NCBI GenBank assembly: GCA_010405405.1
Contig: MU004231.1
Span: 1 to 64,000, forward strand
Source of the DNA: Microthyrium microscopicum
Taxonomy: Eukaryota
DNA: 64,000 bases
Reading direction: 5' to 3'
Positions 1 to 51,872 of this stretch are shown here, one piece after another. The position numbers and the translations under genes were made by a program. The notes below the pieces were generated by a model, which had not been told where the DNA came from, did not search any database, and saw only the letters and a program-made list of their open reading frames with translations. Position 1 is the stretch's first letter. Each line of letters opens with the position of its first letter.

Positions 1-86
1 AACCCTAACCCTAACCCTAACCCTAACCCTAACCCTAACCCTAACCCTAACCCTAACCCTAACCCTAACCCTAACCCTAACCCTAA
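1..86. repeat. Telomeric repeat (CCCTAA)n / (TTAGGG)n, about 14 units; chromosome left end
   Basis: Perfect AACCCT tandem array from base 1 to 86 with the C-rich strand on +, as expected for a left telomere. Confidence 0.98.
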
Positions 87-189
87 ACAACGCTCAAACC
101 ATCTCCCACCCCCTTCTCCAATAAAACAATAATTTAAACTGCAAACTGCGCGCTGCGCGCGCAATCGACCACCAACTCTATCACCATTT

Positions 190-700: not shown

Positions 701-2001
701 CGCGCCCACACACCGCCCAGCCCCAACACCAAACGCATCGCCAACTCACACCACCGCTATCCCGAACATCATCCTGCTCCGCGCTCTGGCACTTCTCGCG
801 CTCAAGCGATCACGAAACTCATGCCGCGCCGCTCAACCCTCACGTCCCTGCTTGCCAACCTCTTCCGACTCTCACATCCCGCTGACTCCAAGCATCTTCG
901 CGCAACCGGCCTTCTACCGACGTCCTTTCTCATAATACCTTTCCGGCGATCCTTTCGGTGACACATCACCTCCATTTGCCTTCATTGATCGATACTCCCG
1001 CCATTGACGACGCCGCGACGTGGGACGGGGCCCGCGTTTGTCACCGCGGGATTGGCACACAAACTCGGGCGCCTCTGGGCAGTCGCCATGGATCATGATC
1101 TCCTCAAAGCCGTACATGGAAGCGGGCATATTTTTTTGTCGTTATTGCAAGCTCTATGAATAACACACTTTCCTGAGCCCGATTTGTGCATGCTGCTCGC
1201 GCATCACCGGAATGGCCTTGTCGTCGTCAATGCCATCGGTCATCGTCCTCGGTTACAATCTTTCGTCCCTAATCTGATGTGGAAAACCGTTGCGGCTGTA
1301 ACGACAATTGACATCGCGACCTTGTTCTTTCGCATGCGATGCTTCGTACAAGTCATTCCTGTGTCCTTTCTTGCCAACTGCCTGAGTTGGCGTCCGCAAC
1401 CGTTGAATACCTTCTTCTCGCGTTCGCTTTTGCAACGGGCATGAATGACCCACGACCTCTTCGGCATGTGCTCACGTAACGGGCGTGAATGGGTCGCGAC
1501 CTCTTGTTCTTCACATCTTCTGCAAGTGAATCCGCAACGGGCATGAATGTTTTCGCCCTTTCGTCTCACCTTTGGTTTCGTGGCTGCCCGTGCGGCTTAA
1601 CCAATCGACATTTCTCTTCTCATTCACCTCATTTTGTGCCCTCTGTTTTCTCCGTGATGCTGCTCGCGCATTGCGCATGAATGATGGCGGATCGATTCCA
1701 TACCGTCCTGTGTTTTCTGTCGTGCTGCTCGCGCGCCGTGCATCTGCATTTCGAGCGGCACAAAGCTATCATCAACTGACCTCGCCTCACATCTGCCCGC
1801 TTGCCACACCATCCTCTCTGTCGAACTACTTTTGGTCCTCCGAGCGAACTCACGCCCATCATCCTCATCAAACCCGACTTCCCGTGGCACATTGCCTTCT
1901 CGGCGTTCCAGTGGCCGGTTTTGCACATGCTCCATTTGACTGCCGCGTTGTCGACGTTTTCGAACGCCGGGCCAACGGAAACACTCGCATGCAGCGGGCA
2001 C

Positions 2002-2064
2002 CGGTCAACGGTCAACGGTCAATGGGCAATGGGCAATGGGCAACGGTCAACGGTCAACCGGCAA
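2002..2064. repeat. 7-bp minisatellite, 9 units
   Basis: (CGGTCAA)3 (TGGGCAA)3 (CGGTCAA)2 CCGGCAA read directly. Confidence 0.9.
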
Positions 2065-3595
2065 TTGACATCAATCGGCGCTCACCATATGGACTGGAGT
2101 TCTGATGTATTTCCCGTTGGCACATGCCCCCTATGAATGACAGTCCTGGCGTAATGCGGACGATTGGAATCGGTATTTCTCTCCTGGTCTACGGTGGGAA
2201 CTTCTTGTTGCTGTAGTCGCGGTTTTGTATGCGATCTTTTCTGATACACTACAAGCCATTGCGTATGTATTCCTTTGCTGGTTCTGCACGGTTGATACGC
2301 TCTCGCAACGGGCATCTACACAAGCTCTTTCACTGCTCCCTTGCGGGTGTTTCTCAGTGAATACGCTGTCGCAACGGGCATCTATATCAGTTGTTCTTTT
2401 GCTCCTTTCTTTTTCCGTCTGTTCGCTTCGGGGCGTCATGGATGTATTCGCTCTCGCACCGGCCATGACTGGCTTTCCTTCCGATATCATACGTATCTCC
2501 CGCAAGTGGTGGACATGAGCAGATACACCACGGGGCTTTCCTCATACGTCTTCCTTCTGGAGCTCGGTTCCCACGCCGGCATCAAATTACTCTGCTTCTG
2601 CACAGTTGTATGGGCACAAACACTGGGGGCTTGTCGTGTTCTGCTTGTAACATGCTACGATGCACATTCCGTCGCGGCGATGTTCTCTTCGTCTCCCTAC
2701 TCTCTGCCGACTCAACTGTTACCCGCTCCGCCACTCGCGCGTTGCGCATCTTGCTACAAAACGCCCATTGCCATCAATTTGCTCCCCAATTCAGGCTTCC
2801 TCTCTCTCAGTATTCAGTTCGCGCCACGTAAGTTCGTGGCAAAATGGTCACCTCACGACACGGGAACACCTCACACATCACCGTTGCCACTTCAATTTCA
2901 GACCTCTCTTCGGAAACTACGTTCCTCTGGCGCAATTCCTTCGCGACGGTGCTCTTGGTGGTCTCTCGCATCATTGACATTATCAGCTCATTTGTACTTT
3001 GGTTGCCCGTTCTTGATCGCCGGACTGGCTGATAAAGCTGGATCTTTTCGGTCACGTCCATGGACGGTTTCCGCGCTGTACTCGGAACTCTCTGCGATTT
3101 GCGATTGATCTCTGGCGGTATATCTTTCTGGCGCATGCCTGACGAACGACAAGCCATGAATGATCTGGTTCGTCATTGATTTTCTCGCGCGGTGGACAAA
3201 TGATCCTGATGTTCCGCGTCTTTGTGATTCTTGCTCTTTCTCGTGTGACTTACCATATGTGCTCTTCTCTCCTGTGACGGATATGTTGCTGTTTTCTCTG
3301 CATGCCATTCCGTCTACTCGACCTGAAGCGGTCCATTACTGAACTCGATCTCTTTCCTTGCTCCTCTTTCATGTCTTTTGGTCTTCTTGGGGCCGGCTTT
3401 CGCATCCGGGATGAATGTGTATTGTCATTTGCTTCTTTTTGGTTGCTGTAATGCTCCATGAAACAATTCGTATCTGTAACTAGTCTTTGCCGTCGTGCTG
3501 CTCAAGTATGCGCATGAATGAAAACGTGTCGTGCTCCTCGCTGTCCTCATCCTCGTCGTGTGCCCTCTATTTTCACTGTCCAGCTACTCGCGCCT

Positions 3596-3722
3596 TGCGC
3601 ATGAATGATGACGGTCGTACTCTTCCTTTTCGCCGTCTGTGGGGCTTGGTTCTTGAATGTCGACGTTGTGTACCTCTTTGGGCGATATGCGGGCATCCAC
3701 GACCGGAGCAGTGGCATCTTGG
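3596..3722 (-). repeat. Inverted subtelomeric duplication of about 17439-17570
   Basis: Reverse complement aligns with 17439-17570. Peptides: QDATAPVVDARISPKEVHNVDIQEPSPTDGEKEEYDRHHS versus QDAPGPILDARI*PKEVHIVDIQEPSPTDSEKEEYNRHHS. Confidence 0.9.
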
Positions 3723-6700
3723 TATCTTCTTGGAAGTATTGGACCCACACTACACATAACTGGTTGTTTTGCTTGGGCACCCAACATGGTTTGAAGTATT
3801 TATTCACAGTTACTACTCAAAGGATGGTCGGCTAGTATATGTATCGTTTACGTCGGCGCTCATGGAATTGGCTCTGGGCAGCAAAGGTATAACATCGCGC
3901 CTGGTGGTAGTTATCATGTTCGGCTTCGCCATCATTATAGATCTGTGGCCATTGCCATGAAGAAAACAGGTTTCAAGGAGCGAAGATGTGATCATGTACA
4001 AATTTATGGACTTTGAAAAGCAGAAGACACGCGTTTCCTTTCCATACGCGATAGCGCGCTCTGCGCAACTGGTGGCTGGATCAGCTGGAAATCTCATCCA
4101 ATCGGAAAACCCGAGCCATCTGTTGCGCCACCTCCTTGTCACAATACCCAAGGTTCGGGAGGTGTGTTTTGCTCCGGGCGCACTCCACGGTGTCTGAGCT
4201 TCTCGTGAAAAACGTAATTTCAGTTGCGGGCGTGACTTTGTAGCCTACCCTAAGGCATGCCTCCGTCAAGCAGCAGCATTGGGAATCTATCGTCTTTTAT
4301 GCCCGACTCACAGCAAGCCAGAGCTGGTCCATGTTCGTCTCCCTCCCAAGAAAGAACAGAACGTACGGAAATCACGTCACCACAAGCTCTATTTGTTGCA
4401 TGTGAACACTGAGCTTTGGTTTTGAATACCGGCTATGGTTTTGATCCCAGAACAGGAAGTTGACGCTGATATCTACTGAAAGTCGAAAGATATCATACAT
4501 TCAGTCCAGTCTGAAGTTAGACTCATCGTTGAGCTTCTTGCTAACTCGGAAATGATGTTGCTTGACCCTGAATTTCTCTGATTTGACGTTCATACATTTG
4601 ATCTCTTGCCGCAGCCTGATTTCGAAAGGTATCAAACGCGAAGCTGGAAGTACAAAGGGAATCAATTCGAGTGGCGCGCTTTGAAATGCCGCCTACAACA
4701 TATGTTTGAACCGTTTTTTTTTCGGTAATTCGCCGAATCATGGACAAACGTTGCCTCAACATGCTCTGGAGTGACTGTATCTACATGAGACTACTTTGAA
4801 CATGTCCAAGAAGGCTTCCAAGGGAGCATCGGACGATCACCGCGGGGACAACCACGTAAGAAAAGTTCTCGGAATATCTGGCAATGTGCCATGTAACGTC
4901 GCTTTCCTCGGCTGCTTCGTCGCTTTGTCCAATCATTTTCTTTTCGTGGGTAATCTGTGTTCAATGCTCCGCGAATCACGGACACGGCCTTGCCTGCTTT
5001 CTTCTCAGGGACTTCACGGTGCGCTTGTCGTATGTCAGGCAGCATATTACGCTGGGTCCTCTAACAGCTTCGCAGTGTGTGAGCGAGGAACGATCCTTTT
5101 CTTGACAACAACCATAGCTCTGGTGGTTATTGCCTAGACTGAATGTTTCATTTGGTTGTTGAATGGTAAGCGGTCTATGCTGCGTGACAATCTCTCAATT
5201 TGCATGCAATTTGAGTCCTGAGCCCGACTGCTATTGTGGCCTGGCCACCGCGAGTGCAACCTACGCATCTCTCACCATCACATATCCGGCCAAAGTATTT
5301 GCGAAGATTGAGACTCGAATACGTCTTTGGACTACGAGCTGTGAAAGCAGCGAGCTTCAGGTTTCGACTTGTCATCGGAAACTTAACGACCTGGTATGTA
5401 AAAGCGAGAGGCGCGAGTCATGATTGTCCGGAGTTGATACTGTCACGAACTCAAGGCTTGATGAAGGCGCAGATCATACGGCAAAAGTTGAGTCCGCATC
5501 AATGAATCTTCAAATGTCCAGGGCAGATTTTGACTAAAAAAATAGAATTTGCGTATCAATTGAATGACGGGAAGAGGACTTCGTCAACTTGCTGAACACA
5601 AAACCTATCTTGTATCAAATTCGATGTCAGATTCATTTGAGATCGCTACGGATTGCATGTCTGTTTGTCTGGGAAATATATATACGATCACTTCGGCAGT
5701 AATTGCGATCCGAATACTACAATGAGTTCAAGAATACCAGTTCAGGGCGTTTGTTAAACGAACAGCAAGCTCAGGATCAAATTGGAGCAAAGCCTCTGTT
5801 CAACATCTCAGCGAGACTCTACATAGCTAGATTTCGAAAAGGATTGACTTTCCAGGCTTCACAGGAATCACCAGCCGATTGAAACAACCACGCATCATTG
5901 GCGTTCAAGCCTTTCGTCTTCTTGAAATTTGGCAAAATTATTGCCTCCTTCTTCACCGACAACGACTGCCCTCCATGTCCGCGACCGCAACTCGACTGGG
6001 ATCGAATGATAGTTATCATGGCGGCTGTGATCGTGACTGGTTCCTTGCGATCTACGAGCTGAAAAAAGCATACACCCATAAGCGAAAAGTGATGGTCGCT
6101 GGGACACACCCCCTCTTGTCTCTTTGTAGAAAAATCAGATAATCCAACCCTGATTACCCAAGTCAATCAGGTGACCAGCTCTCTGTCCAAGGGCAAAGGC
6201 AAGGCGATGCCAGTCTCTTCCAACGCATATGCCTCCAACAAGGAGGGCGAAATTCTCTAGGATTGTCTGATGAACCAGATGACTTTGTCTGTTAGTTAGA
6301 CCGCTAAAGTAATGGATTACGGAAGAAGTCTAGAAGATAGAGGCTAAGTAGATTATAACATCAAAAGCTTCACAGGGTCTCGGCATACACCAAGCAAATG
6401 AACGCAGTGATCACACTTCGCAGAAGTGTGATGGCGGCAAGCGCCTCTGTACAACTAGCAGCAAGACGGTTTTGTTCAGGATTGGATGTGATAATAGAGT
6501 ATGGTGTTAGGCTCGAGCGTAATACGTGTGTGTTGTTCGGGCTCTTCCCCGTCATGAGAATAAATAAGCACAAACCATTGGCTTCAAGTCCGCTCCCTTT
6601 GACAGACGTTTGGCGGATCGCAGCTCAGAAACAAGTAAGACACTGTTTGGCATCGTCGAGGGCCTTCATCAAGCAGTAGAATCGAGAGCACAATCGTCAA

Positions 6701-37390: not shown

Positions 37391-40300
37391 CTAAGCCTGG
37401 TCCAAACTCTGATCAAGACACATCTCATAGTAAATGCCTTTGCGATCCAAAAGCTGCGAGTGAGTGCCCGCTTCAACAATCTTACCACCACCAAATACAA
37501 ATATACAGTTACAGTCCCTGACCGTGCTAAGACGATGGGCTACAGCTATCGTAGTAGAGTTCTGAGCCCCATTCTTCAGCGCTTCCTGTACCAACCTCTC
37601 ACTATCTGTGTCCAGCGCAGACGTTGCTTCATCAAGCAGCAGAAGTTTCGGTTGTCGAATCAAAGCGCGAGCAATCGCTATACGCTGTCGTTGGCCACCA
37701 GATAGTTGCGCGCCGCGTGAACCCACTGGCGTATTCAAACCTTCCGGTAAAGATGTGATGAATTCGAAGATATTGGCTTTTCTGCACGCGTCTTCGATTT
37801 CTTGCTCGGAAGCCGCGTGCTCTTTTCCGAGAGCAACGTTGTCACGGATTGTACCTTGATAGAGAGTAGGTTCTTGCTGGACCATGGCGATATTTGAGCG
37901 GTAGGCACGAGGATTGAAATGCTTGATATCCTGGCCGTCGAATTGGATCATGCCCGAGTCTGGATCATAGAATCGCTCAAGTAAAGCAATCATAGTAGTT
38001 TTGCCGCACCCTGATGCTCCCACAAAGGCGAGACTTTGGCCTTGTTCAGCTTTGATGCTGACTCCCCGAAGGACTTTGTAATGTGGGCGGAGTGCATAAG
38101 AGAATGTCAGGTCGGTACAATTGACTTCAGCCGCTGGCCCGTTTCCCATGTCCTTTTCGTGATCAGCGGCATCGGATTGCCTATGCTCTCGCATAGTTGG
38201 CACGATGGAGTGCAGCCAAAGCAGATAGTTCGCTGCCCTCTGTGCCTTGGTGAAACTAGTTGTATACGAGAAGAACTGTGCTGCTCCTTCACCTCCAAAG
38301 ATAACACATACAAAGACGGTAAAGAATTGCGTAGAATTATATTCACCCGTACTCAGCAGACGTGAGCCATACCAGAAGCCGAGTGCCATTGCCAAGAAAG
38401 TGATCGATTGACTACCACTAAACCAAATCATTGTCCACAAAAAGCTCTTGATGGACTGCTTGTTGATGCCTTCGAGTCGTTCTTGATAGCGTTCAAGTAC
38501 GTTTGGTTCGAGCGCAAGGGAAGCTACAGTACGTATAGCAGCTACTGCTTCCGATGCAATAGCTGCACTGGCAGAGAATCTGTCGGCGATCTGATCCTCG
38601 AGTTTACTAGACGGAATGTTAGCCATGTTGACCACATAGCGCTTGAGTTGCAGATTTGAGTAATACATACCTCTCCAAACGTATACGGACGTAACCAAAC
38701 ATGACCATCACCGGCAAAGCTGACAAGGAGATTGTCAAACCTAGCTTCCAGCCAAAAGCAATGGCTACAACGCTGCTGGCGATGATGTTGACGAATATGG
38801 TAATAATTAGGCCGACATTGAAACCAATCAACTCCTGAAGATCTGTAGGTTGAGTCGAAAGTTTTGCCACCAGTGCACCTAGACTGTTCTCGTCTCGATC
38901 GAAAAACTCCATATCCTGGTTCATGAGGTCCTTGAACATTTGCAGCCGGTAAAAGTATGTTGTTTCTTGGCTGATGACACCAGCAGACCAGCCGATGCCA
39001 AAGTATATGAAGAACACTATGATGGCGACTATGAAGAGCATCAAAGCATAAAAGTCACCACGAGATATAGCTTGAGCGGCTGGTAATTGGAAGGCGGTGA
39101 CTGCACGCGCAAAGAGGACTGCTGTTGCTGGATTGACACAACCTCCAAGAGAAGATGTGACAAAGACCGAAAGAAACCAAGGCCAGAGATGAGATTGTTG
39201 CCGGGCAAGGATCCAGAGACATTTGAGTAAGCTGTAATGAAAAGTTCTCTTCTCTGTACCCTCTTCTACGGCGCCGATTGCAGCGTTGGTGTTTGATGTC
39301 TTCAGCCGGAGAAGTTCAGGTCTCGTACCATCTTCGCTGTGGCGTTCTGAGCTACTATCGTCGCCTTCTTGGTTTTGATGAAGGTCTTGCGCTCTAACTA
39401 GGCGAGCATAATCGCCACCTTTAGCAATCAATTCTTCATGTGTGCCTTGCTCAACGATAACACCTTTTGACATAACAGCGATATTGCTGGCCTTTCGTAC
39501 AGTGGAGAGCTTGTGTGCGATGATCAAAGTTGTCCTTGAGGTTGAGACCTTATCAAGTGCCTCTTGTACCATTCTCTCTGCTTTCGGGTCCAGTGCGCTT
39601 GTGGCCTCGTCCAAGAGAAGTACTTTGGGGTCAGAAATGATGCTACGCGCGATCGCAATACGTTGCTTCTGTCCTCCAGATAGTCTTCCAGCACGATCGC
39701 CAACCTGGGTGTCATAGCCATCGGAAAGTCCAGAAATGAAATCATGGGCGAAAGCGGAGATGCAAGCTTCTTGCACAAGCTTCCTCTTATTTGCCTCAGG
39801 CGCAGTGGCATGTTCTGTTCCAACGAGTCCGTATGCAACGTTTTCGAAGACTGTTCCATTGAAAAGAACAGGTTCCTGTTGAACAACTCGAATATTGGTG
39901 CGCAGCCATTGAATGTTCAGTTCGCTAATATCGATTTCGTCAAGCGTGATGCTACCTACCGTAGGTTTGTACCACCGTTCCAGCATTGCAATAACTGTAG
40001 ACTTGCCTGAGCCTGAAGCTCCAACAAGAGCCGTGGTCTTGCCAGTCGGCAATTTCAAATTGATTCCGTTCAGAATAGGAGCGTTTGGTCTTGATGGATA
40101 GTGAAAGCCGAGATCTCGCAGCTCAACTTCGCCTACACATTCCGCTGGAGTCTGGCCAGATGTGGACATTGAGTCGACTTGCGTTTCCCTGTCAATAGTC
40201 TTGAAAAGATCATGGGCGGCCGAGGCTGCTTTGGTGAGGGTCAAGGTCTGTGGTCCAATTTGCGTCAGAGCCGAGGCGGCAACGATGACAGCGAAGATAA

Positions 40301-41310
40301 CGGTGACAACAGACCCGGAAGTTGCGATTTCCCCACTGACATACATATGAATGCCTCGCCAGAAAGCCAGACCATAACCAGCAGTGACGCAAAAGAATTG
40401 GATTGAAAAAAGCACGCCGTAGTTAGGTCTTTTCTTGCGGCCTTCTCGTTTAGCTTCAAGGAGGATTTCATCATACTTGTCAGCTAGACGAGGATGCATC
40501 CAGAATGCGTGAACGTTTCGAATACTGGAGATCACATCTTCCGCAAGAGCGCCGGCTCTGCCGTAGGCATCTAGGATTTTTCCTTCGCATTTCACCTCAA
40601 CGCCAATACAAATTGCTACCACAATCACGATCGTCGGCACAATGCTCAGTGTGATCAGTGTCAGTTTCCATTGCACAGAGAAGGCCTGAATTTGGTTAGC
40701 AGGACTCGACGAAGCAACAGATCATGGGTGTACGTACTACTACGAATGCTGCAACGAACGTTGCAATTCCCTGTACTCCAAGACCAAGCTTTTCAGCAAT
40801 GCCAACATTAACCAGATTTCCGTTCGTTGTAATTTGAACAGCCATGGCACCATTGCTGGCTTGATCGAAGAAAGCAATGTCCTGACGCAAAGCTTGTCGC
40901 AAGAAGTCGATTCGCAATGCCTTGGTAGTCTGTAAAGCTGAGATGTTGACAGCCACGGTCCAAATATACGTCAAACAAAACCTGGCGATGAAGAGATAGA
41001 TGAACCATAATGTCCAACTCGTAGATTGCGAACGAAATTCAGCTGGGGAGAGCTTTCCAGTGCCAAAGTCTGTGAAGGTGGTGACAGTCCTGCCAAAGAC
41101 TAGATTCATCAACGGGAGAAGCGCCCCTGAGATTATGGCTGCCACAAGGGCAATGAAGTTTAGGATCCATCCAGTTCTGTTGGTATATTTGAAGATTCGC
41201 CAATAGCTCGCCCAGCCGGCTTGTTCTTTATCTTTGTCATTGGCGCCGTCATTTGCCTTATCGTTCGCAACGTCGAGAGTGACATCCTTCGAAGGCGCAT
41301 CTGCAGGCAT
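37391..41310 (-). CDS. Full-length ABCB (MDR/P-glycoprotein-type) transporter, about 1267 aa
   Basis: TMD-NBD-TMD-NBD; Walker A GASGSGKST and GASGCGKTT, LSGGQ signatures, LLLDEATSALD. Introns 40686-40737 and 38607-38670 give a 3804-nt CDS. Confidence 0.95.
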
Positions 41311-41624
41311 GATATTCGGGGAAGAAGATGATTCAATTGGTGAGAATTGAATTGGAGAAACAGGAGAAGTTCAACATACATATATAGTACATACTGAAGT
41401 GCGACTACTTTTCACCATGCCACATCGAATAATGGCCACATTTTGCTCGACGTAGAGCTCGATTAAGCTACCTACGCGACAGAGAGGTTGTAACCTTGTC
41501 CAAGATGGGAGCGATGACAGGTTGATGTTCAACTACGTCGATTGATTGGCAGCTTCGGGATTGACGCGTTTGTTGTTGGTGGTGGTCCCCCTGATCGACG
41601 TGCGAGCAGCCGAAAGCTGAGAGC

Positions 41625-41860: not shown

Positions 41861-44314
41861 ATGCCAGCAGTACGTCCGACGGTATCGTATTGAACCAATG
41901 CTGTAGCTAAGATCATTACCAGTGCGATACCTGCCGACTACGTAAGGTAACGATGTTCCTTCGTGCCCAGATGACACTGTATTGATAGCGTCAGATCCGC
42001 TGTGACAGGCAATCGCCTTGTAACTCTTGCGTATTATCAAAGTTCGATTGCAGTACAAGCTCGAAGCGATCGCGAGGCGCGCGCAAGGTTGATCTTACAC
42101 TCCGTCAAAGGTATGTACTATAGATACATCTTATAGAAATATCTTTGTTTGCAATTTCTAACTATCTACTCATCAGCGGCAATTCTCTACATGTGCTTAA
42201 GCCAAAGACAGCCACTAACACATCCACTGTTCCAAGGCACAACGATCTTAATGGCAGTTCGGCAAAGCGTATCTCGGTTGCGCCGCCAGATCCGTTTAAA
42301 TTACCTAATGTTTCTCTCGTTGCTTCGGAGGGTGTAGAATTCGAAGGTGAATCCTCACTACACGCTCATTCCAAAGCTGCTCAAGATCTTCTGGAACAAA
42401 CCCTTAGCAACCATTCCAATGTCCGTGATAACCCCAAGATGGTTGCCGCTTTGAGGTCGTTGCGCCAAATAGTAGATGCGGACAAGATCGAACCTTCACA
42501 GAAGAAAAACAACTTGGTAAGATTGAGCGGACATCGCCAATCTATTTATGAGCTCCAGTTGCCGCCAACAGAGGCAGTTTTGGACATTCTTCGCAAAGCA
42601 AAAGGTAAGCAAAGCACTTTCGATGTGTCATTTTTTAAACACTTGAGCATGAATAATACTCAAAGTCTCTAGAACGAACCACCTTTGTCTTCAGCCCTCC
42701 TCTCTCATTTATACCTCGTGACCAATTCACCGAACTCTGCAAGAATGTTTTCTTCCGCACGGAGGATTATCCTATCTCCACGGCAGTGATTGTTCATGGA
42801 ACGCTCAACAATCTCTTAAAGGAGTTTGAATGGGCTGAGAAGGATCTCACGCTTCGACAAAAATACAGCGAGTGGGTTAAGCTATGTCGCACAAACCTTG
42901 AGATGAGCATCTCTAGTCTCGATATACTACTTCCAACGACTATGGAGAGTGCTCAAGCCTTAATAATTGCGGCATCTTACTGTATGGAGATTGCTCAAGC
43001 TTCAAGTTGTAAGAAGTTTGTAATACATGGTTGTATGGTTGTTCGATCTTTAGGCTGGCATCGTTCATCATCTACGAAGAACGATAGCGAGCTTCTTCGA
43101 AACCAAAAGCTTTTGATTTTTTGGGTGCTTTATTCGCTAGACAAGTACCTTTCATTGCGATTAGGTCAAGCATCATTCATCCAGGATTATGATATTGATA
43201 TTCCTTCACCTCACATGGCCACATCTGGTCCTCGAACCCCATCAGGCCGCCTGGATATGTGGGTTAGAGCAGGTAGTGTCACCAGCCTCGTTTATGAGAA
43301 ATTGTATTCGCCTGGCTCTTTGGGCCAGACAGATAATATGCGCATTCAGTCCGCTCTACAGCTTCTGAAACAGGTTGAGGAAATAAAACCAACGTTCTAC
43401 GATAAGGTCAGTTTTCTGTTGTAAAGACGACAGTCCATTTCGGAGCATGGCCACTAACTGCAGTTAAGGACAATATTTCACAGCTCATCCAAAATCCGCA
43501 TTCCTCGCCGCCTGCCTTTTTTTATGAGATCAACGATATGCTCTTCAAATCCGACGAGATCACCTACCACGCCCTTCTCTGCATGATCTACCGTGCAACG
43601 CCATCAGGTGCGATGTTGACCTATGACCCGGCTGGTCGGTGCATAGAACATGCTCGCGCCGCATTGGAATGTCATAGATACTGTACAGCTACTTTCAAAT
43701 CTCAGACTGAAGTATGGGCCATGTACTTGCACTGGTGAGTCTCGCAAAAACTTGCTACAATCGTAGCTTATCTTCGTAACAGAGTAGTGACTGATCTCCA
43801 TATAGGACTATTCTGAACACCCCTTTCGGTCACTTTACCACCCTTTTCAGCCATGTACTGAAGACGCACGACCGCTCTGATCTGGAGCGCCTGCAAGATT
43901 TTGCAGCTTCCATGTCCGGATTCTCCTCCTTCACAGCCCGCATATAAAGTCTCCCGAATTGCTTCAGTCTTTGTCAGTGTCGCAATGGTGTATATCGAAT
44001 CAAAGGAGCAAGAAGCCCGAAACGCGTTCAGTGAGTCGCAGCGGCCTTTGTCGCCAAACTCTCATAGCTCCACAAATGCCAATGCCAACGCCTTCCCGCA
44101 CACAACTGCAGACTCGATGCCAGCATATGCGCCAATTGATCCACTTCTAAACGCTCTTGGTTTAGCATATGATCCTTCCTCTAGTGTGAATGGCAGCTCT
44201 GGAACAAACGCCGATTTGGTAAATTGGTTCAATGGCAATCAACAGATCAACGGCCTGTTGGAGGATGATCTGAGCTACCTAGACGATTTTACTCTAAACT
44301 TTTCCAATACATGA
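41861..44314 (+). CDS. Zn(II)2Cys6 fungal transcription factor with apparent frameshift in the last exon
   Basis: Spliced binuclear cluster CDTCRLRK|IRCDRQSPCNSCVLSKFDC (exons 41923-41946 and 41995-42110). Fungal TF middle domain FWVLYSLDKYLSLRLGQ. The start codon is uncertain. The last exon frame stops at 43945-43947 while the plausible C-terminus continues in the +1 frame. Confidence 0.85.
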
Positions 44315-45269: not shown

Positions 45270-45641
45270 GAGGAACCATAGCCACATGCAGGGTAATAGA
45301 CCTTGAAGGAGGCCAGTTTTGCCTTGCTCGTTTGGTAAGAACATAACCTTATGTTCTAATGTTTGTATTGTATTCGTGTCACTATCATTCGGCTGCTTAC
45401 AAGTATCCCGCGTGAGCTTTCAGGTATACGCAATGTATCAAATATGTGCTCACCAGATTTATGGGAAAGCTACAAGTTACCTAAAACGTGTTGTTGATTT
45501 TTAACATTCAGGTGGCCAAGGATCGTGACTTAGCTCAAAAGCTTATTTGTATAAAGAGTTCTTTGTTCAAGCGCTACAAAGTATTGTAGTCATTCAAATC
45601 AAGTTAATACTTGACTTCACTTCATCATTAGCTCCTTTACA

Positions 45642-48600
45642 ATGGAGAGCTTCGATTCAGACAGTGACACAACACTCCCTTGGGAGCCATCAGCCCTTTT
45701 GGAGGTCTATAACGAGAAGGTGGGCTTGGAGACTTTCACTGTCAAAGGTACGACTTCCTTTTGAGGTGATCTCGTGGGCGCGACCTATGTTTCTACTTGC
45801 AGAAGTCTTAATCATTTGAATGTTGCGCTGTCATGTGGACATATGTTATTCTCCTGCGCGTTCTTTCCAAATACTTCAAACCTCCCAAAACTAACTCATT
45901 CGTAGAACTTTCTTCTGACCATATGGAAACCGCTGAAATCCAAGAAATAAAGATGCCCGATGCGCGTATTGAACAGTACAATGTTCCAACACAACAATCC
46001 TCAGCAGCGCTGGAGTTCGAAAACATCAAAAGACAATGCCCTGTCCTCGCTTCCACTGGCTGCAACGCCGATTTTTGCCAATCAGGCCGCATGCTCCACA
46101 CAGACGAGCCAAGAGTTGGAGAGAACCGACCCATTGAAGTTGTCATGAACGAAGCAGAGCAATTCCTACGAGAAATGCTACAGGGAGGCCTCTTCAGCAC
46201 TATCGATGAATGTGAGGAGCGCATAAGAGTCGTCCACGCGGAAATATGCTCCAACTCACGCCACGGCATCATTCCCGGACAAGAACAGCTTGGATTTGTT
46301 GGAGGAATTTATTACCAGTCCACACAGGAGCTGGAATTTGGTCTGCGGAGATCATGGCGTAATGCGCGAAAGTGTATAATGCGCTCGCAGCACGAAACAC
46401 TTGTGCTGAAAGACCTGAGACACATCACATCCAGTCTGGAGATGGCCAATGAGGTTATCAAAGGTATGCAGGAAGCCTTCAACAAAGGCAGTATTCGGCC
46501 GACGACTTTTGTTTTTCCCGCGCGCACCGTTGACCAACGAGGACCGATGATCATAAGTCAGCAGTTACTCGCTTTCGCCGGCTATAAAATGAATGATGGA
46601 AGCATTCTGGGGGATCCTGCCAATGTTCAGTTGACGAAAGATATTATCGAGCTTGGATGGACACCACCTGAATATAAAACGAGATGGGATCTCTTACCCT
46701 TCGTCACGCTGGCCGAGAACGCAGCACCCGCCATCGTTGAATTGCCATTGAATCTCCAGAAGCTTGTACAAATTCGACATCCTCGATATGAATCCGCCTT
46801 TGAAGACTTGGACCTAAAATGGGTAGCTGCACCAGCTCTAAGCAGACTCGGATTCGATATAGGAGGCGTTCAGTATACAGCAACTCCATTCATCGGCTGG
46901 TTCATGGATGCGGAAATCGGAGTACGGAATCTAGCAGACAGCTTTCGGTATAACGTTCTCCCTGACGTAGTCAAAGCTTTGAAGTTGGAAGGTAGCAAAG
47001 ACTACGATGATATGGACGATCTTCCTGAGTACGAAAAGCTCGCTTTACTCTCAAGAGCACAGGCAGAGCTTACCTACGCTGTCACTTGGTCGTTCCAGAA
47101 CGCGGGAGTCTCCATCTCCGATTCATTCACAGCATCTGCAAACTATATTGAGTTTGACGATGCCTTCAAAGCGAAGCATGGATATCGGCTACCAAGTGAC
47201 CCTTATTGGCTTGCTCCACCACAGGGAAGCATAGTACCAATCTGGCATCGTGGAGGTGCGCCGAATTATCAACCAAAACCACTGATTGCAAAGCATGTCC
47301 TGAATCCGATGAAGGCATGGCGAAGAGAAGTGGCGAGATATGTCAAGGCTGGTACACCAGTGCCCGAGATCATAATCAAGAAGAACTCGTACAGCTCGCC
47401 AGTACGGCAGCTGGCGCCCGTCAGTGCCAAAGCTATTCCCAACCAAATTATCGCACAATCCATTTCCGTGGCAACTTCGATCACAACACAATTCATCAGC
47501 AATAAACTTCAAGGTTTTGAAGCCTTGATGGGTACCGACAGCTGCCATATTGCAATTCATTACTGCACTGCTGGAACGACAGCTCGAAAATTAGCGGATA
47601 AGCTTCACAAGAAGATCGCCATGTACCTTGCAAAGACCACAAGTAAAGTGATCTTACACAACATCGCAACCCTGGACGCCATTGAAGTTGACGAACTTGG
47701 ACCAAATACTCTACTGCTATTAGTAGTAAGTTCGACAGGTTTTGGCGATATTCCAGCAAATGGGCAAGCGTTCTACAACGCCTGCAAGCTTCGAGAGAAC
47801 AGCACCCCAAAGCTGAACTTTAGATTTTCTCTCTTTGGCAATGGCGATAGCAGATATGCAGACTCATATAACGGAGGCGCATTGAAGGTTTTGGAGGCGC
47901 TTAATGGAATTGGAGGCACTTCACTCGGTGGATCTGGCTTCTTTGATGCAGATACTGCCTTGGAACCTGTGCCAACCCAAGCATTGGACCGATGGTTTCA
48001 TGCATTACAACAGCCATATGATGCCGCCTTGGGAGTCAACGGCCAAATGACCATTCATGACAGCAAAGGAAATATCACAATTCCACTCAAGCGAGGATCA
48101 ATAGTTGATCCATGGACACTCTTAGTCCAGCAACTCAAGATTCTGACTGCGCAGTTCGTCCCGGCCACCATCGTCGATATAAAGCGCGGCTCAGAACTGC
48201 CTGGAACTGGTTCCATGATAGTGACGCTTGATGTGGGAGCGACCCCTTGCGTGCATCTGGGCTGCATTCAGGTATTGCCAGTGAATTCGCCAGCAAAAGT
48301 TGAGACAATTCTGAGCTTGCTGAATCTTGATGGAAGCGAATGGCTTGATCTTTCAAAGACCGAGGCAATCATCGGGATTACAAATAAGCGATTCTTTGCG
48401 GAGCTCGTGGATTTGGAGGCACCTTTCTCAGATCTTGCGTGGATATCACAGCTCAAGATTGGCGAAAACATACCAGAAGCATCTATAGATGGACTCGGCT
48501 CTTTCAAAGTGCTCCAATACCTTCAATCGCAAGGCCTATTTCCTGAGTATGTCTCGCAGGAAGTGCGTAAAAATATCATTCTGTCCATGCGTCTGCTCAC

Positions 48601-49219
48601 AGAACGAGTATTCTCCGTGGCCTCTTCGGCACCTGTTCTTCGGCTGAAAGGGTCCCAGAAGCGGACATGCAACGAAGTCGATATTATGGTCAAGTCCGTC
48701 GCCAACGGGCGCTTCAGCGATGCGTTTCTCTCCGCTTGCTCTCTTCCCGTCGCATTACAAGTTCGGAGCATCGAAGCTGCTTGCACGCGTAAACTGACAG
48801 AATGGACTGGGCAAACTCATATGGTCGCTATTGCAACTGGTGCTGGCTTTGGTCCTGTGAGAGCTCTTTTGCAGCGTCAGATTGGGCTTTCTCGGGAGAA
48901 GAGTATGTCCGTCTTTGTCGGCGTCAAAGCATGCGATGTCTCGCTCATATCCGATGTATTGGACGAAGCAGCCATCAGTGGCATCGCCGACGTTGTGGAT
49001 ATTGTGCCAAGCAACGAAAACAAGCTTCGGATTCAGGATAGATTCTTGGAACCTTGTAATCGTCAACATCTGAAGAAGAAGATTGAAGGTGATGGTGCTC
49101 TGGTGTTCATCTGTTCTGGGCAGATCCAAGCGACGGAGATAATTCGCAAGCTAGATGAGGTTGTGGATGGGGAAATAAGAGTAATTCTCGGAGAGCGACT
49201 GATCTTGGAGGTTTATTAG
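45642..49219 (+). CDS. Nitric oxide synthase-like protein (oxygenase + flavodoxin + FAD/NADPH reductase), about 1139 aa
   Basis: TGCNADFCQSGRM (Cx4C), heme motif WRNARKCIMR, QLLAFAGY…GDPAN, PFIGWFMDAEIGVRN, DPYWLAPPQGS, FMN motifs VSSTGFGDIP and FSLFGNGDSRY, FAD motif RVFSVASS, NADPH motif TGAGFGP. Model: exon 45642-45747, phase-1 intron 45748-45905 (GTACGA…CTAAC…TAG), exon 45906-49219. Confidence 0.92.
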
Positions 49220-49949
49220 CTTGACGAAGGAAGGCGAATGGTGAAGAGTAGAGTAAGCATAGCGAGGTGTCGGAGCAATTGCCAGTAGTGATAGATCAGG
49301 CTCTTTTCTTGCCCTCAAAAGCAATACACACGATTTTGATATTTTCTCTTCGCAACTGGCATGTCTTTTGTTCCTCATCTATTCTTTCCATGAAGTATCC
49401 AAGATTCTCAAAGTTTGAAGTCTTATCTGGCTCTATGGCACGCGCGCTGTTCCGAGGTTTATAAACACCACGTCTTGGTAATTGGATCTAGTAGTTGAAG
49501 AGTCGTAAGTAATGGTAGCCCAGTACGTTGCTCATGTAAATCCAGATTGACGAGAGCATGGGACCAATAAATGAAACCTAAGGGTATGTCGTTAGGTAGA
49601 ACTTAGAAGACAATCGAACGATAAGACCAACGTCAAATGAAAAGGGGCAGGGGCGATGAAAGCATCGAATCTCTCGTTCGTATTCATTTGGCGCCCCTTT
49701 TCAACACCAAGACCTGCCTCGATCTGGCCATAAGCAGAAGCAGCCTGACGTCAAGCATTGTGATGAGTTCTTTTCATCTGACTTCGTCGTGGTTGGCAAC
49801 TGTTCTTGCAACGTCAATCGTGGGTCTGTCTGAAAGATGTCGCAGAGTGTTATGCTCTCCATGACACGAATGCGCTTTCTCATGTCAACGTGGACGCGTA
49901 TTCAAGACAGTAACTTCATCACCAAGGACGGCTTCGAGAATAAGCGGTC

Positions 49950-51872
49950 ATGTCACAAGCGCTTTATGAAGACCTAAAACTGGACGCGAACCAGACACGC
50001 GTTCTCGTACTGCAGCCATGCCGAAAAGACAAGGACCCCATCGTGTGTTACCTGGAGATTGTCGACTTGACTAGTGGATCATCTTCAATCAATTTTGAGG
50101 CACTATCTTACGTTTGGGGCAACCTATCTGACCGGCGCGATATTCAAATTGGGCCTCATGTTGTGGCCGTCACCCTGAACTTGGAGAAAGCGCTGCGCTG
50201 TCTTCGTGGTCGGAAGCGTAGTCGGCGACTATGGGTAGATGCCGTCTCAATTAATCAGAATGACATCCCGGAACGAAACTATCAGGTCAAGCTAATGTCT
50301 AGCATCTATCGAGATGCCAAAAAGGTACTCGTCTGGCTTGGTGAATCAGACAAGGACATTGAACGCACTGTCAAGTGGATGCGAAGATCTCTATCTCCGG
50401 GCTTCTTCGACGTCTCTATTGCCAAAGGGACCAATGACTCAAAATGGCATTCAAAAACAGATTCTCCTAAGGATATTCCTGCATCAAATCCAGTCACGAA
50501 TTGGTTCCGGAGGTCCCTGCTCTGCGGATCTGGTGAGATCGCCACAACTGACATCAAGTCGGATCATGGGATGCAAAAGCTGCTTGAAAACCCGTATTGG
50601 CAGCGAATGTGGACTTGTCAAGAGTTTGCACTGGCTAGTTGGGATCCCATTGTGATCTGCGGTCGAAGCTCTTTCGAGGCTAGTTATCTATGGCCAGCTT
50701 TGCACGCCAAAGGACTTCTTCAAGACATGTCGATGCTCTGGACGGAGGATGGGATTATCAACAACGGCTTTACCTCGAATTTCCCCAACATTCAGACATC
50801 TATCTTAATCAGACACGCTATGGACAACAGAGGATTGCTTCCGTACCGGCTCGAACCTAGTCTTGGTTTGTTCCTCAGCATGACTTGCGCCAGAGAATGT
50901 ATAGACCCCAAGGATAAGATATATGCGCTTTATGGATTGGTGCAGCATCAGGATACATTGCCTGCTGCGGACTACGAAAAGTCCACAGAAACTATTGTTA
51001 AGGAGACCTTGTCGTTCCTGATCAACGAAAGGGATGAGGTTGATGTTTATAGCTTCCTAGGCACCTTCTCAAAATCCGACAAAGTATCCTTTTCATCATG
51101 GGTCCCAAACCTATCAGATGGCAGCTTACGCTCCGCAAAATGCCCAGCACATTTCATCAGTCGTGAGATCTGCTCGCATGGTGGATTTCGATTTGGTGGC
51201 GCTCAAGATCAGCACAACGGTCGTGTTTCCCCGGACCTTACTACCCTCGTTGTCCACGGAATTCAGATTGACAGACTACAGAAGATATTTGTGTTGGGTA
51301 ACAACCTATCGCAACTGCGGACACAGATTATCGAAATTCAGGAATTGCTGAAACACAATCAATCCATCAATAGACGCGAGCTCTCAATGGTCAAAACAAG
51401 TGAAAATCAACGTCCTATAGCTGAGCTCATCAACAAACCAGGAGTACAAAACCTGTGGACAACTTTAGCTCCACGATTCGATGACAACCATGGCATCAAA
51501 GACATGGACTCTTTACCTGTCCAATTCGAAAAGTTTCTAGGCACCTCAGACATTGTTGACGGAGTATATCCAGGAATGCGAGCTTCTCCCGCCCTTGTGC
51601 AAGCTCTTGAACATATGTTTGGCCGGTCATTCTTCATTACAGAACAGGGAATATTCGGCGTGAGCGTCCCTGATGTCCAAGATGGCGATGAGCTTGCGCT
51701 ACTCTATGGCTTCAAAGTTCCATATATTCTGCGAAGAAGTCCTGAATACCTTGGCGCGCATTCAGAACCTTTCTTAATGGTAGGTGGAGCATATGTTTCG
51801 GGCGTGATGCTTGGTGAACTTGCTGCCGTGGAAGGCTTGAGTTCTCGCATGAAAGCTTTGAAGATAATATGA
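49950..51872 (+). CDS. HET-domain (heterokaryon incompatibility, HET-6-like) protein, 640 aa
   Basis: FEALSYVWG, LWVDAVSINQND…ERNYQVKLMSSIY, YWQRMWTCQE, DPKDKIYALYGL, SWVPN, C-terminal GD…PYILR…VGGAYVSGVM. Confidence 0.93.
   Translation: MSQALYEDLKLDANQTRVLVLQPCRKDKDPIVCYLEIVDLTSGSSSINFEALSYVWGNLSDRRDIQIGPHVVAVTLNLEKALRCLRGRKRSRRLWVDAVSINQNDIPERNYQVKLMSSIYRDAKKVLVWLGESDKDIERTVKWMRRSLSPGFFDVSIAKGTNDSKWHSKTDSPKDIPASNPVTNWFRRSLLCGSGEIATTDIKSDHGMQKLLENPYWQRMWTCQEFALASWDPIVICGRSSFEASYLWPALHAKGLLQDMSMLWTEDGIINNGFTSNFPNIQTSILIRHAMDNRGLLPYRLEPSLGLFLSMTCARECIDPKDKIYALYGLVQHQDTLPAADYEKSTETIVKETLSFLINERDEVDVYSFLGTFSKSDKVSFSSWVPNLSDGSLRSAKCPAHFISREICSHGGFRFGGAQDQHNGRVSPDLTTLVVHGIQIDRLQKIFVLGNNLSQLRTQIIEIQELLKHNQSINRRELSMVKTSENQRPIAELINKPGVQNLWTTLAPRFDDNHGIKDMDSLPVQFEKFLGTSDIVDGVYPGMRASPALVQALEHMFGRSFFITEQGIFGVSVPDVQDGDELALLYGFKVPYILRRSPEYLGAHSEPFLMVGGAYVSGVMLGELAAVEGLSSRMKALKII

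Follow-up and report, generated by a model that had tools for sequence, protein, structure and literature searches.

Within the window, i.e. the stretch of 64,000 nucleotides of Microthyrium microscopicum DNA that was analysed, an intact open reading frame for a nitric oxide synthase (NOS)-like protein extends over 1135 codons without a stop, from stop to stop, at 45812..49219 (+). The main coding exon of the gene was placed at 45906..49219 (+), with the stop codon at 49217-49219, based on the open frame, its translation and the deposited protein. The first-pass annotation of this DNA had described 3.3 kb of the gene as a single exon, and the open frame bears this out. Residue numbers of domains and landmark motifs refer to P0001, the translation of 45932..49219 (1095 aa). 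The deposited M. microscopicum protein BT63DRAFT_396259 (P0002), which has the UniRef name nitric-oxide synthase, is the same protein except for a gap of 17 residues; the corresponding 17 codons, an in-frame stretch of 51 nt at 47330..47380 (+), are taken out as an intron by the deposited model. The donor of this stretch is weak (GTGGCG), the closest relative, P0003, has residues at this position, and a public contig covering the locus does not skip the stretch. It is probably a coding linker rather than an intron. Upstream, a putative exon 1 at 45642..45747 (+), with the ATG at 45642 and a GT at 45748, comprises 35 codons plus one base and joins the main frame in phase; it would be followed by a putative intron of 158 nt at 45748..45905 (+) with the elements GTACGA, ACTAAC (45890-45895) and TAG. 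This start and this intron are compatible with the sequence and in frame from 45906 on. In alignments with relatives, exon 1 has no homology support and similarity does not set in until shortly before the zinc motif described below; moreover, the single public contig on the locus does not skip the putative intron. Other in-frame starts are ATG 45923 and ATG 45953, the latter being the start of the deposited model. In total, we conclude that the gene for a NOS-type enzyme in this leaf-litter ascomycete is real and intact.

At the start of the window, the telomere-type repeat AACCCT is present in 14.3 copies (1..86) and, therefore, the NOS-like gene lies ~45.6 kb from the chromosome end. An ABC transporter gene (37394..41370 (-)) and a fungal transcription-factor gene (42124..43735) are located just upstream of it, and a HET-domain gene adjoins it. 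Core enzymes of the polyketide, peptide-synthetase and terpene types were absent from the 23 larger ORFs that were scanned in the 20-60 kb interval. A metagenome scan yielded no relatives with a single-protein query and 27 loci with alignment A2 as the query; at 17 of these loci, at least one flank measures ~5 kb or more, and there are fewer independent contexts than loci because several of the 27 are near-duplicates. When the 67 ORFs in the window that start at or after base 20000 and encode at least 110 aa were compared with the 27 loci at E <= 1e-8, only two matched, i.e. the NOS frame at 27/27 loci and, at 14 loci, the shadow frame antisense to it. Both are NOS-derived, and a conserved gene cluster was rejected.

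The public contig, which spans 45400..49400, comes from a single run (X1), the RNA label of which is a guess. It skips neither proposed sense intron and cannot show that the sense mRNA is absent; it does skip 81 nt at 46617..46697 (-), which are a putative intron in an antisense transcript, with the elements GTAAGA, CTGAAC and CAG. Thus, the sole transcript-like evidence at the locus is an antisense GT..AG splice and not a sense mRNA.

Residues 71-442 (46142..47257 (+)) form the NOS oxygenase (haem) domain. They match the Pfam NO_synthase profile with an E-value of 8.4e-87 and 291.9 bits over profile positions 5-345 of 362, in agreement with the earlier claim that the oxygenase domain is genuine. 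Similarly, the haem domains of nNOS, eNOS and iNOS in the PDB match the oxygenase part at ~1e-61 to 1e-56 (nNOS, 1e-61). A model of the oxygenase gave TM values of 0.72-0.77 with the haem domains of mammalian NOS; its mean pLDDT is just 71.5 and, as pLDDT falls below 50 in the zinc and pterin segments and in the substrate loop, it is usable for the overall fold match only.

The zinc-type motif TGCNADFCQSGRM is located at residues 42-54 (46055..46093 (+)), where CNADFC aligns with the Cx4C of the fish nNOS, Hydra and Owenia rows, as expected from the previous description of an animal-type zinc motif. Among the 112 rows of the Pezizomycotina-type family to which the protein belongs, the Cys pair is present in 103, while eight rows are gapped and one has another residue. 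We regard this Cx4C as a candidate zinc-tetrathiolate motif of the eukaryote-type NOS dimer. The proximal haem-thiolate Cys (codon 46373..46375 (+), residue 148 in WRNARKC) aligns with Cys415 of 8t1j_A, and the Glu that binds the substrate guanidinium (codon 46913..46915 (+), residue 328 in GWFMDAEIG) aligns with Glu592; each is present in 110/112 family rows and in 104/104 other rows. The coordinates given for these three landmarks in the first-pass annotation were exact, and GVRN and DPYWLAPP, which it had also listed, were found. In 8t1j_A numbering, the query has the equivalents of Trp409 (111/112 family rows), Gln478 (100/112), Trp587 (111/112), Arg596, i.e. the Arg of GVRN (109/112), Arg603 (110/112), Trp678, i.e. 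the Trp of DPYW in DPYWLAPP (110/112), and His692 (110/112). We take Arg596 and Trp678 to be pterin contacts, with Trp678 stacking. Several other positions are replaced in the family: Val567 by Leu (110/112 rows), Asn569 by Arg (96/112), Tyr588 by Phe (97/112; Aspergillus members keep Tyr588), Gly590-Thr591 by Asp-Ala (each 109/112), Trp676 by Pro (108/112) and Tyr562 by Val (85/112).

For the reductase half, the first-pass annotation had proposed flavodoxin and FAD/NADPH domains. The FMN-binding flavodoxin domain (residues 543-675, 47558..47956 (+)) was recovered by Pfam Flavodoxin_1 with 43.4 bits at a cut-off of 25, and its PDB matches include cindoxin (2.7e-07) and the CPR FMN domain (7e-05). 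By contrast, the profile test failed for the rest of the reductase: FAD_binding_1 (PF00667) had no Pfam match in P0001, and NAD_binding_1 (PF00175) reached 17.1 bits, under the curated cut-off of 22. Among the 120 relatives listed, 11 have PF00667, 11 have PF00175 and 98 have neither. Likewise, phmmer searches of the reductase against the PDB gave weak matches, i.e. E 0.0033 to sulfite reductase flavoprotein (residues 383-577) and a sub-threshold CPR stretch. The region at 48128..49216 (+), which ends in EVY, is divergent in sequence and matches a connecting, FAD- and NADPH-binding module of the FNR-like type in fold. Residues 500-1095 were modelled with AlphaFold2 at a mean pLDDT of 85.6; the alignment used for the model included 13 non-family rows (ten of the animal/amoebozoan group and three with early-diverging fungal NOS), which may have aided the prediction. 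Model residues 234-596 aligned with the FAD/NADP+ domain of rat nNOS (1f20) with Z 28.3 and an rmsd of 3.8 A over 341 residues, and the same module gave Z 27.5 with CPR (3qfs) and Z 27.7 with 1ddg. Foldseek searches with the reductase model returned syNOS (2.5e-26), CPR (6.5e-25) and the nNOS reductase (3.3e-23). As modelled, an FAD/NADPH (FNR-like) fold with a connecting domain is present despite the Pfam miss.

The reductase contains RVFSVASS (with Phe for Tyr), GRFSD, GAGFGP, FICSG and a terminal Tyr. In alignment A1, the columns of RxFS, GxGxxP, the FICSG Cys and the terminal aromatic residue are either invariant or conserved at 90% or above, with F or Y as the terminal residue in 43/43 family rows. 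We presume that R-x-Y-S is an FAD motif and G-x-G-x-x-P an NADPH motif, to which a catalytic Cys and a C-terminal stacking aromatic residue are added, and that the 2'-phosphate of NADPH is bound by a pattern of S-R and K-x-Y. This canonical 2'-phosphate pattern was not found in the protein, which has P-S-N for S-R and K-L-R-I-Q for K-x-Y-V-Q; S-N is present in 15/15 family rows shown. Because of the altered pattern, NADPH or NADH are both possible as the electron donor. The FMN loops are also non-canonical, i.e. CTAGTTA compared with ATETGKS and STGFGD compared with STFGNGD.

Regulatory elements of animal NOS were not recognised in the protein. There is no autoinhibitory insert (28 residues between the two FMN-loop motifs as opposed to 68 in fish nNOS) and no regulatory C-terminal tail (0 residues after the terminal aromatic residue as opposed to 34 in fish nNOS). 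The tail is 6-61 residues long in ten rows of the animal/amoebozoan group, including fish nNOS, Hydra and Owenia, while the median in 43 family rows is 0 and the maximum 11. The linker (residues 453-538) contains 11 K+R and 4 D+E; its sole basic stretch, KAWRRE, is conserved in the family and located at the oxygenase end, and the linkers differ greatly between relatives, both in length and in composition. By sequence inspection, we recognised no conserved basic helix at the position of the calmodulin site in this variable linker. The animal architecture attributed to the gene previously therefore holds for the domain order and the Cx4C motif, but not for the insert or the C-terminal tail, and a conserved basic helix was not recognised. 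As no recognisable calmodulin helix, autoinhibitory insert or C-terminal tail is present, control would be expected via expression and not via Ca2+/calmodulin.

Altogether, we consider it fairly probable that the gene encodes a self-sufficient, calmodulin-independent NOS-type flavohaemoprotein that converts arginine to NO and belongs to a family mainly found in Pezizomycotina. From the observed family membership, domain folds, residue conservation and missing animal inserts, we infer the dimer, cofactors, substrate, product and regulation of this predicted enzyme. Oxygenase, FMN and FNR-like FAD/NADPH modules are fused in one polypeptide, and the self-sufficient enzyme proposed in the first-pass annotation is also the most likely reading here. 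By homology to characterised NOS, the Cx4C motifs of two oxygenase domains would form a Cys4 zinc site in a dimer, and electrons would pass from NADPH to FAD in the C-terminal FNR-like module and from FAD via FMN in the flavodoxin domain to the Cys-ligated haem. A pterin would be stacked on the conserved Trp, and the haem would activate O2 for the conversion of L-arginine via N-hydroxy-arginine to citrulline and NO.

Compared with mammalian NOS (nNOS, eNOS and iNOS), the protein has the same oxygenase fold and catalytic residues, with ~30-40% identity over ~320 residues, and shares the Cx4C, the order oxygenase-FMN-FAD/NADPH and the FAD/NADPH fold (Z 28.3 to 1f20, as above). It differs in lacking the autoinhibitory insert and the C-terminal tail, in its variable linker, in the replaced pocket positions 567, 569, 588, 590, 591 and 676, and in having a reductase too divergent for Pfam FAD_binding_1. 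Physarum NOS and syNOS of Synechococcus PCC 7335 (PDB 9q05), the latter ranking first among the Foldseek matches of the reductase model, are likewise self-sufficient with an oxygenase and a diflavin reductase, and Physarum NOS have been described as calcium-independent; however, the Microthyrium protein has no globin or C2 domain, and the proteins are on separate deep branches of the tree. Bacterial stand-alone NOS oxygenases (~330-440 aa) share the core of the haem domain and the catalytic residues Cys, Glu and Trp with the Microthyrium protein, but have neither the N-terminal Cx4C segment nor a fused reductase; the first Cx4C Cys is gapped in 57/104 non-family rows. At position 567, many of these bacterial proteins have Ile whereas the Pezizomycotina-type family has Leu. 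Finally, CPR and sulfite reductase flavoprotein have the same FMN, connecting, FAD and NADPH fold (Z 27-28, ~480-490 residues aligned as whole chains) with only 15-20% identity; compared with them, the hairpin before G-x-x-S/T is shorter in the Microthyrium protein, the 2'-phosphate pattern is altered and the plant-FNR-like end is EVY.

PF02898 is present in 120/120 relatives listed, and many already bear the name nitric oxide synthase. The family is large, with members in Aspergillus, Colletotrichum, Cercospora, Ophiocordyceps, many lichen fungi and Collybia; M. microscopicum itself has a second NOS-like paralogue. Thus, a full-length NOS-type gene is widespread in Pezizomycotina, with the Microthyrium locus and ~100 named relatives including most lichen-forming fungi sampled. 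To our knowledge, the accessible literature contains no enzymology for the Pezizomycotina NOS-like relatives. According to reviews on fungal NO, NOS orthologues are absent or rare in fungal genomes, model fungi have none, and the source of arginine-dependent NO is unknown. The statement in the first-pass annotation that NOS-like sequences are only sporadic in ascomycetes fits this literature but not the databases. For A. flavus, A. oryzae, A. niger and G. graminicola, NOS-like sequences have already been published, and two reports on a cloned active fungal 'iNOS-like' protein, cited in a review, may or may not concern the Pezizomycotina-type family. Among the listed literature matches for M. 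microscopicum, the titles and opening abstract lines do not have NOS as a subject. In comparative papers, the FAD domain of fungal NOS is termed 'apparently lost' or 'highly derived'; the model suggests that it is structurally present. As its family has been annotated in public databases already, the Microthyrium gene is of use as a test case rather than being a discovery, and the gain from this gene itself, already deposited and UniRef-named, is modest. It does provide a concrete NOS candidate for arginine-dependent NO in fungi, with tractable relatives.

The first-pass annotation had also suggested a possibly horizontal distribution. Acquisition of the gene, or of the whole Pezizomycotina-type family, from an animal, protist or bacterium would explain the patchy distribution, and the lack of NOS in model fungi reported in reviews and the subtelomeric site are in line with it. 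In the phylogeny, the stem branch of the family is long (0.94 changes per column with FastTree, 1.44 with IQ-TREE), and the family is nested neither within the animal NOS clade (support 99, IQ-TREE) nor in the presumably bacterial groups, which were judged bacterial by domain layout. Moreover, NOS is also present in chytrids, Mucoromycota, Zoopagomycota and Basidiomycota (Phlyctochytrium, Gonapodya, Jimgerdemannia, Basidiobolus and Pterulicium), and 31/31 fungal rows are on one side of a single branch (SH-aLRT 92). Of the trees found, the one constrained to fungal monophyly had the highest likelihood (p-AU 0.853) and exceeded the free 'quick' tree by 22.5 log-likelihood units, the search for the latter being suboptimal; grouping the family with animal and amoebozoan NOS gained just 1.26 units and was not rejected (p-AU 0.513), so that both constraints, for groups named after the first tree was seen, survive the AU tests. 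'CIMR' after the haem Cys is common to the family and several other fungal NOS, with 'C(V/I)GR' elsewhere, and at least three old paralogue clades are spread over Dothideomycetes, both of which argue against acquisition from outside the fungi. Within the family tree, Collybia (Basidiomycota) is placed among lichen-forming ascomycetes, and transfer inside fungi is therefore plausible. In total, a horizontal origin of the gene or family is not supported by these sequence comparisons and we regard it as improbable; the best tree joins all fungal NOS, with their deep placement weakly fixed.

Bacterial NOS supplies reactive nitrogen for thaxtomin nitration, and the Microthyrium protein might similarly combine a NOS fold with changed chemistry, i.e. 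oxidise a different guanidine or amine, yield nitrate or nitroxyl rather than free NO, or deliver reactive nitrogen to a metabolic pathway. The near-invariant replacements Val567Leu, Asn569Arg, Tyr588Phe, Gly590Asp, Thr591Ala and Trp676Pro, together with the less frequent Tyr562Val, are at positions that line the substrate/haem pocket of animal NOS and, like the long stem branch, the altered NADPH-site pattern and the ABC transporter and transcription-factor genes just upstream, would fit this. We nevertheless consider it unlikely, because the residues for the guanidinium and amino-acid ends of the substrate (Glu592, Trp587, Gln478, Arg603 and Asp/Asn597) are kept, Aspergillus members keep Tyr588, the 23 larger ORFs scanned include no polyketide, peptide-synthetase or terpene core enzymes, and none of the neighbours recurs at the 27 loci of relatives. 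We think it very improbable that the gene is a silent or decaying accessory copy in subtelomeric chromatin from which no enzyme is made under normal conditions: the 1135-codon frame is intact, every checked catalytic and cofactor residue is kept, and the oxygenase domain is 81-82% identical to that of the nearest relative. The telomere repeat at 45.6 kb, the adjoining HET-domain gene, the second paralogue and the public contig, with its antisense GT..AG splice and neither proposed sense intron skipped, are compatible with silencing; however, this contig is unable to show the absence of sense mRNA. More tentatively, Pezizomycotina-type NOS could be a functionally shifted subfamily, in which the pocket replacements and a rewired nucleotide site, in a minimal FNR-like reductase not controlled by calmodulin, could change the substrate, product (e.g. 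nitrate/nitroxyl) or electron donor, and the subtelomeric copy could be gated by spliced antisense RNA; this proposal seems doubtful to us.

The closest comparison is with the annotated NOS-like proteins of Pezizomycotina (Aspergillus section Flavi/Nigri, Colletotrichum/Glomerella, Cercospora, Neofusicoccum, Ophiocordyceps and many Lecanoromycetes), which belong to the same family with 37-64% full-length identity and have the domain order, the Cx4C, the FNR-like F/Y end and the signatures CIMRS and GWFMDAEIG in common with the Microthyrium protein. Within this family, the Microthyrium copy is in subclade A, together with Tothia, Lepidopterella, lichen fungi and Collybia; the Microthyrium protein ends with the Tyr of EVY and has Phe where most relatives have Tyr in RxYS.

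On the plus strand, a stop-to-stop open frame of 1135 codons spans 45812..49219, and we translated 45932..49219 to give P0001 (1095 aa), the protein studied here. In Pfam searches, P0001 matched NO_synthase (291.9 bits, E 8.4e-87, residues 71-442) and Flavodoxin_1 (43.4 bits, residues 543-675); NAD_binding_1 scored 17.1 bits, under the cut-off of 22, and FAD_binding_1 had no match in P0001. The first-pass annotation had proposed a NOS oxygenase domain fused to flavodoxin and FAD/NADPH domains, and the profiles recover the former two and not the FAD/NADPH part. Searched against the PDB, the oxygenase part matched the haem domains of nNOS, eNOS and iNOS (E ~1e-61 to 1e-56). Moreover, the Cx4C motif, the haem Cys and the substrate Glu lie where they had been placed, at 46055..46093, base 46373 and base 46913, respectively. 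In total, judged from the sequence, the NOS-type match and the landmarks of this frame are far above chance.

In a passage of one paper, fungal NOS are stated to have 'apparently lost the FAD domain' (PMC7400543), and a passage of another describes this domain as 'highly modified or derived' (PMC10073611). In a phmmer search of residues 500-1095 against the PDB, the FMN domain was detected, and beyond it only sulfite reductase flavoprotein (E 0.0033, residues 383-577). For residues 500-1095, AlphaFold2 with an alignment of 57 rows gave a confident model (mean pLDDT 85.6, pTM 0.78). Of the rows in this alignment, 13 are from outside the family (the Pezizomycotina-type NOS clade that holds the query) and could have aided the prediction; 10 of these belong to the animal/amoebozoan tree group, and three group with early-diverging fungal NOS. 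With the model, Foldseek returned whole diflavin reductases, including syNOS (9q05, 2.5e-26), CPR (4yal, 6.5e-25) and the nNOS reductase (1tll, 3.3e-23). In VIA-align, model residues 234-596 superposed on the FAD/NADP+ domain of rat nNOS (1f20) with Z 28.3 and an rmsd of 3.8 A over 341 residues, and on the FAD/NADPH domain of CPR (3qfs) with Z 27.5. The cofactor motifs RVFSVASS, GRFSD, GAGFGP, the Cys of FICSG and the terminal aromatic are recognisable, and in the alignment their columns show full or at least 90% conservation. Because the fold matches and the conserved cofactor motifs are recognisable, we conclude that the FAD/NADPH module, as modelled, is diverged and not lost. Within the reductase, 'S-R' is changed to S-N and K-x-Y-V-Q to K-x-R-I-Q, and both FMN loops are non-canonical.

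The animal architecture claimed for the gene holds for the domain order, the Cx4C motif and the catalytic and pterin residues; it does not extend to the autoinhibitory insert or the C-terminal tail, and probably not to a calmodulin helix. The domain order is the same as in animal NOS, and the Cx4C motif, both Cys of which are present in 103 of the 112 family rows of the oxygenase-domain tree, aligns with those of fish nNOS, Hydra and Owenia. Similarly, Cys415, Trp409, Gln478, Trp587, Glu592, Arg596, Arg603, Trp678 and His692 (numbering of PDB chain 8t1j_A here and below) are each found in 100-111 of these rows. By contrast, the site of the autoinhibitory insert holds 28 residues compared with 68 in fish nNOS, and the query has 0 residues past the terminal aromatic, whereas 6-61 are found there in the animal/amoebozoan tree group (10 rows); in 43 family rows this tail has a median of 0 and a maximum of 11 residues. 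The protein ends in ...ILEVY, and plant-type ferredoxin-NADP reductases likewise end in ...EVY. Finally, the linker between the oxygenase and FMN domains differs in length and composition among relatives, and in the query it has only one basic stretch, 'KAWRRE', which is conserved across the family and lies where the oxygenase domain ends; therefore, calmodulin control would not be expected.

The reading that we favour, and consider reasonably probable, is that the gene encodes a self-sufficient, calmodulin-independent NOS. Two chains would pair as a homodimer, electrons would pass from NAD(P)H through FAD and FMN to the haem, and L-arginine would be oxidised to NO. Alternatively, the same NOS fold might serve a shifted preference for substrate, product or nucleotide. 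This alternative, which we regard as unlikely, draws on the long stem of the family and on replaced pocket residues. The replacements that are specific to the family and nearly invariant in it are Val567 by Leu (110/112 family rows), Asn569 by Arg (96/112), Tyr588 by Phe (97/112; Tyr in the Aspergillus group), Gly590-Thr591 by Asp-Ala (109/112 each), Trp676 by Pro (108/112) and Phe691 by Trp (111/112). The roles of the pocket, pterin, FMN-loop and nucleotide-site positions are those that we presume from structural work on NOS and CPR.

PF02898 is present in all 120 relatives listed and PF00258 in 117; PF00667 and PF00175 are each present in 11, and 98 have neither of the latter two. Many of these relatives already bear the name nitric oxide synthase; among them are proteins of Aspergillus sections Flavi and Nigri, Colletotrichum, Cercospora, Ophiocordyceps, Apiospora, Venturia and Neofusicoccum as well as of two species of Collybia and dozens of Lecanoromycetes that form lichens. 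Passages in earlier papers present NOS-like sequences of A. flavus, A. oryzae, A. niger, G. graminicola, M. phaseolina and others, published since 2011-2014 (PMC4778047, PMC4160249), and passages in reviews still rate fungal NOS orthologues as absent or rare (PMC4929157, PMC10889981). Added here are a FAD/NADPH module that is predicted to be intact, the missing animal regulatory elements, the presence of two old NOS paralogues in M. microscopicum, and the subtelomeric position of the copy in the window together with a possible antisense transcript. The second copy (P0073, 1142 aa) has 37% identity and groups with Verruconis and Aulographum; its N terminus has a long extension, and its NADPH-binding domain is interrupted by an insertion of ~55 residues rich in Ser, Arg and Gly.

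With the oxygenase domain as query, an exhaustive search yielded 1383 cluster representatives at E <= 0.001. The family rows end at 254 bits (rank 36); a row at 242.7 bits, already outside the family, comes next, and varied non-family NOS follow. In a FastTree tree of 216 oxygenase domains, the 112 family rows form one clade (support 100, stem 0.94) with four subclades: A, with the query, Tothia, Lepidopterella, lichen fungi and Collybia; B, with Colletotrichum, Cercospora, Ophiocordyceps, Venturia and Neofusicoccum; C, with Aspergillus; and D, with Verruconis, Aulographum and the Microthyrium paralogue. Elsewhere in fungi, NOS were found in Pterulicium (Basidiomycota), Phlyctochytrium and Gonapodya (chytrids), Jimgerdemannia (Mucoromycota) and Basidiobolus (Zoopagomycota). 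Among the relatives listed, several dozen fungi that form lichens, including Caloplaca, Xanthomendoza, Lecanora, Cladonia and Candelaria, have subclade A NOS genes; a passage of a lichen study states that no NOS orthologues have been found (PMC6681199).

In a 'quick' IQ-TREE tree (LG+C20, 68 rows), the family clade was recovered (support 100, stem 1.44) and the animal clade (support 99) left the family outside. One branch separated all 31 fungal rows together with one unnamed row, with an SH-aLRT of 92 that is below the star threshold. In AU tests, for which the groups were chosen after the first tree had been seen, neither a constraint joining the family with animals and Amoebozoa (p-AU 0.513; 1.26 log-likelihood units over the free tree) nor an all-fungi constraint (p-AU 0.853; 22.5 units over the free tree and the best tree found) was rejected; these tests do not discriminate between the two deep groupings. 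'CIMR' at the haem Cys is present in 99/112 family rows vs 8/104 others, the latter including Pterulicium, Jimgerdemannia and Basidiobolus, and 81/104 non-family rows have Gly at the same position; this small signature is consistent with fungal kinship. A possibly horizontal origin, as had been suggested, is unsupported for the family and in our view unlikely, given that the animal clade excludes it and the best tree joins all fungal NOS. We read the gene as an old eukaryotic one that fungi would have retained amid many losses and old duplications.

Three NOS proteins of Collybia sordida and C. nuda (P0021, P0023 and P0043) lie inside subclade A amid lichen-forming ascomycetes in both trees and sit on contigs of 282-487 kb, and are candidates for an ascomycete-to-basidiomycete transfer. 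The NOS of Pterulicium, another basidiomycete, is outside the family. A rotifer-labelled pair on a long branch (P0249/P0186, Rotaria sp. cluster) stands apart from the animal clade; the FastTree tree places it near the family base, and the IQ-TREE tree groups it with unnamed metagenome rows.

The NOS gene of the window is already present in databases as P0002, 'hypothetical protein BT63DRAFT_396259 [Microthyrium microscopicum]', for which the UniRef name is nitric-oxide synthase. This match assigns the window to M. microscopicum, a Dothideomycete. P0002 has 98% identity to P0001 over 99% of the query, and the sole difference seen is a 17-residue gap, where the deposited model splices out 47330..47380 (51 in-frame bases, 17 codons). 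Because the donor, GTGGCG, is weak and the closest relative retains residues at this place, P0002 is probably 17 residues too short, and we think that 47330..47380 is coding rather than an intron. P0002 begins at ATG 45953, and ATG 45923 is another candidate start; the putative start of the first-pass annotation, ATG 45642, also fits the sequence, with GT at 45748, ACTAAC at 45890, TAG ending at 45905 and a phase that joins the main frame. Likeness to relatives starts only shortly before the zinc motif, and therefore the start codon cannot be fixed by homology.

Of the words sampled from 45400..49400, 97% are present in a public sequencing run (X1), for which the label 'RNA?' is a guess. The single X1 contig over the locus (7350 letters) has 0 letters that differ from the window along the aligned stretch; it keeps 45748..45905 and 47330..47380, and bears no firm message on the sense mRNA. 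The contig omits 81 bases (46617..46697), which on the plus strand begin with CT and end with AC. Read on the minus strand from 46697 down to 46617, with exon-intron borders marked by slashes, this stretch is AGG/GTAAGA ... CTGAAC ... CAG/G, by its sequence a well-formed fungal intron, and its removal from the sense strand would cost 27 conserved NOS codons. Spliced antisense RNA across the NOS gene is the simplest reading of the gap; it is no more than a hint, because contigs merge molecules and lose rarer variants.

Upstream of the NOS gene lie an ABC transporter gene (37394..41370, minus strand), a fungal transcription-factor-domain gene (42124..43735, plus strand) and an ORF without family (43862..44311). 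A HET (heterokaryon incompatibility) domain gene (49944..51872, plus strand; Pfam HET, 103.1 bits) follows 0.7 kb past the NOS stop, and beyond it are genes for a fungal-rhodopsin-domain protein, an APH-type phosphotransferase, a UPF0047 protein and a cutinase. No secondary-metabolite core enzyme was recognised among the 23 larger window ORFs scanned between 20 and 60 kb. In tblastn searches of 67 window ORFs against 27 metagenome loci, several of them near-duplicates and 17 with at least ~5 kb of flanking sequence on one or both sides, matches came from the NOS frame and its antisense shadow only; a conserved gene cluster was rejected, as no neighbour recurs beside the relatives in these loci. 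HET genes are typical of variable, subtelomeric regions. The window starts with 14.3 copies of the telomere-type repeat AACCCT (1..86), and therefore the NOS gene lies ~45.6 kb from the chromosome end and the whole window is subtelomeric. Strand skews are strong in the first 4 kb, with a GC skew of -0.33 in 1..2000 and an AT skew of -0.27 in 2001..4000.
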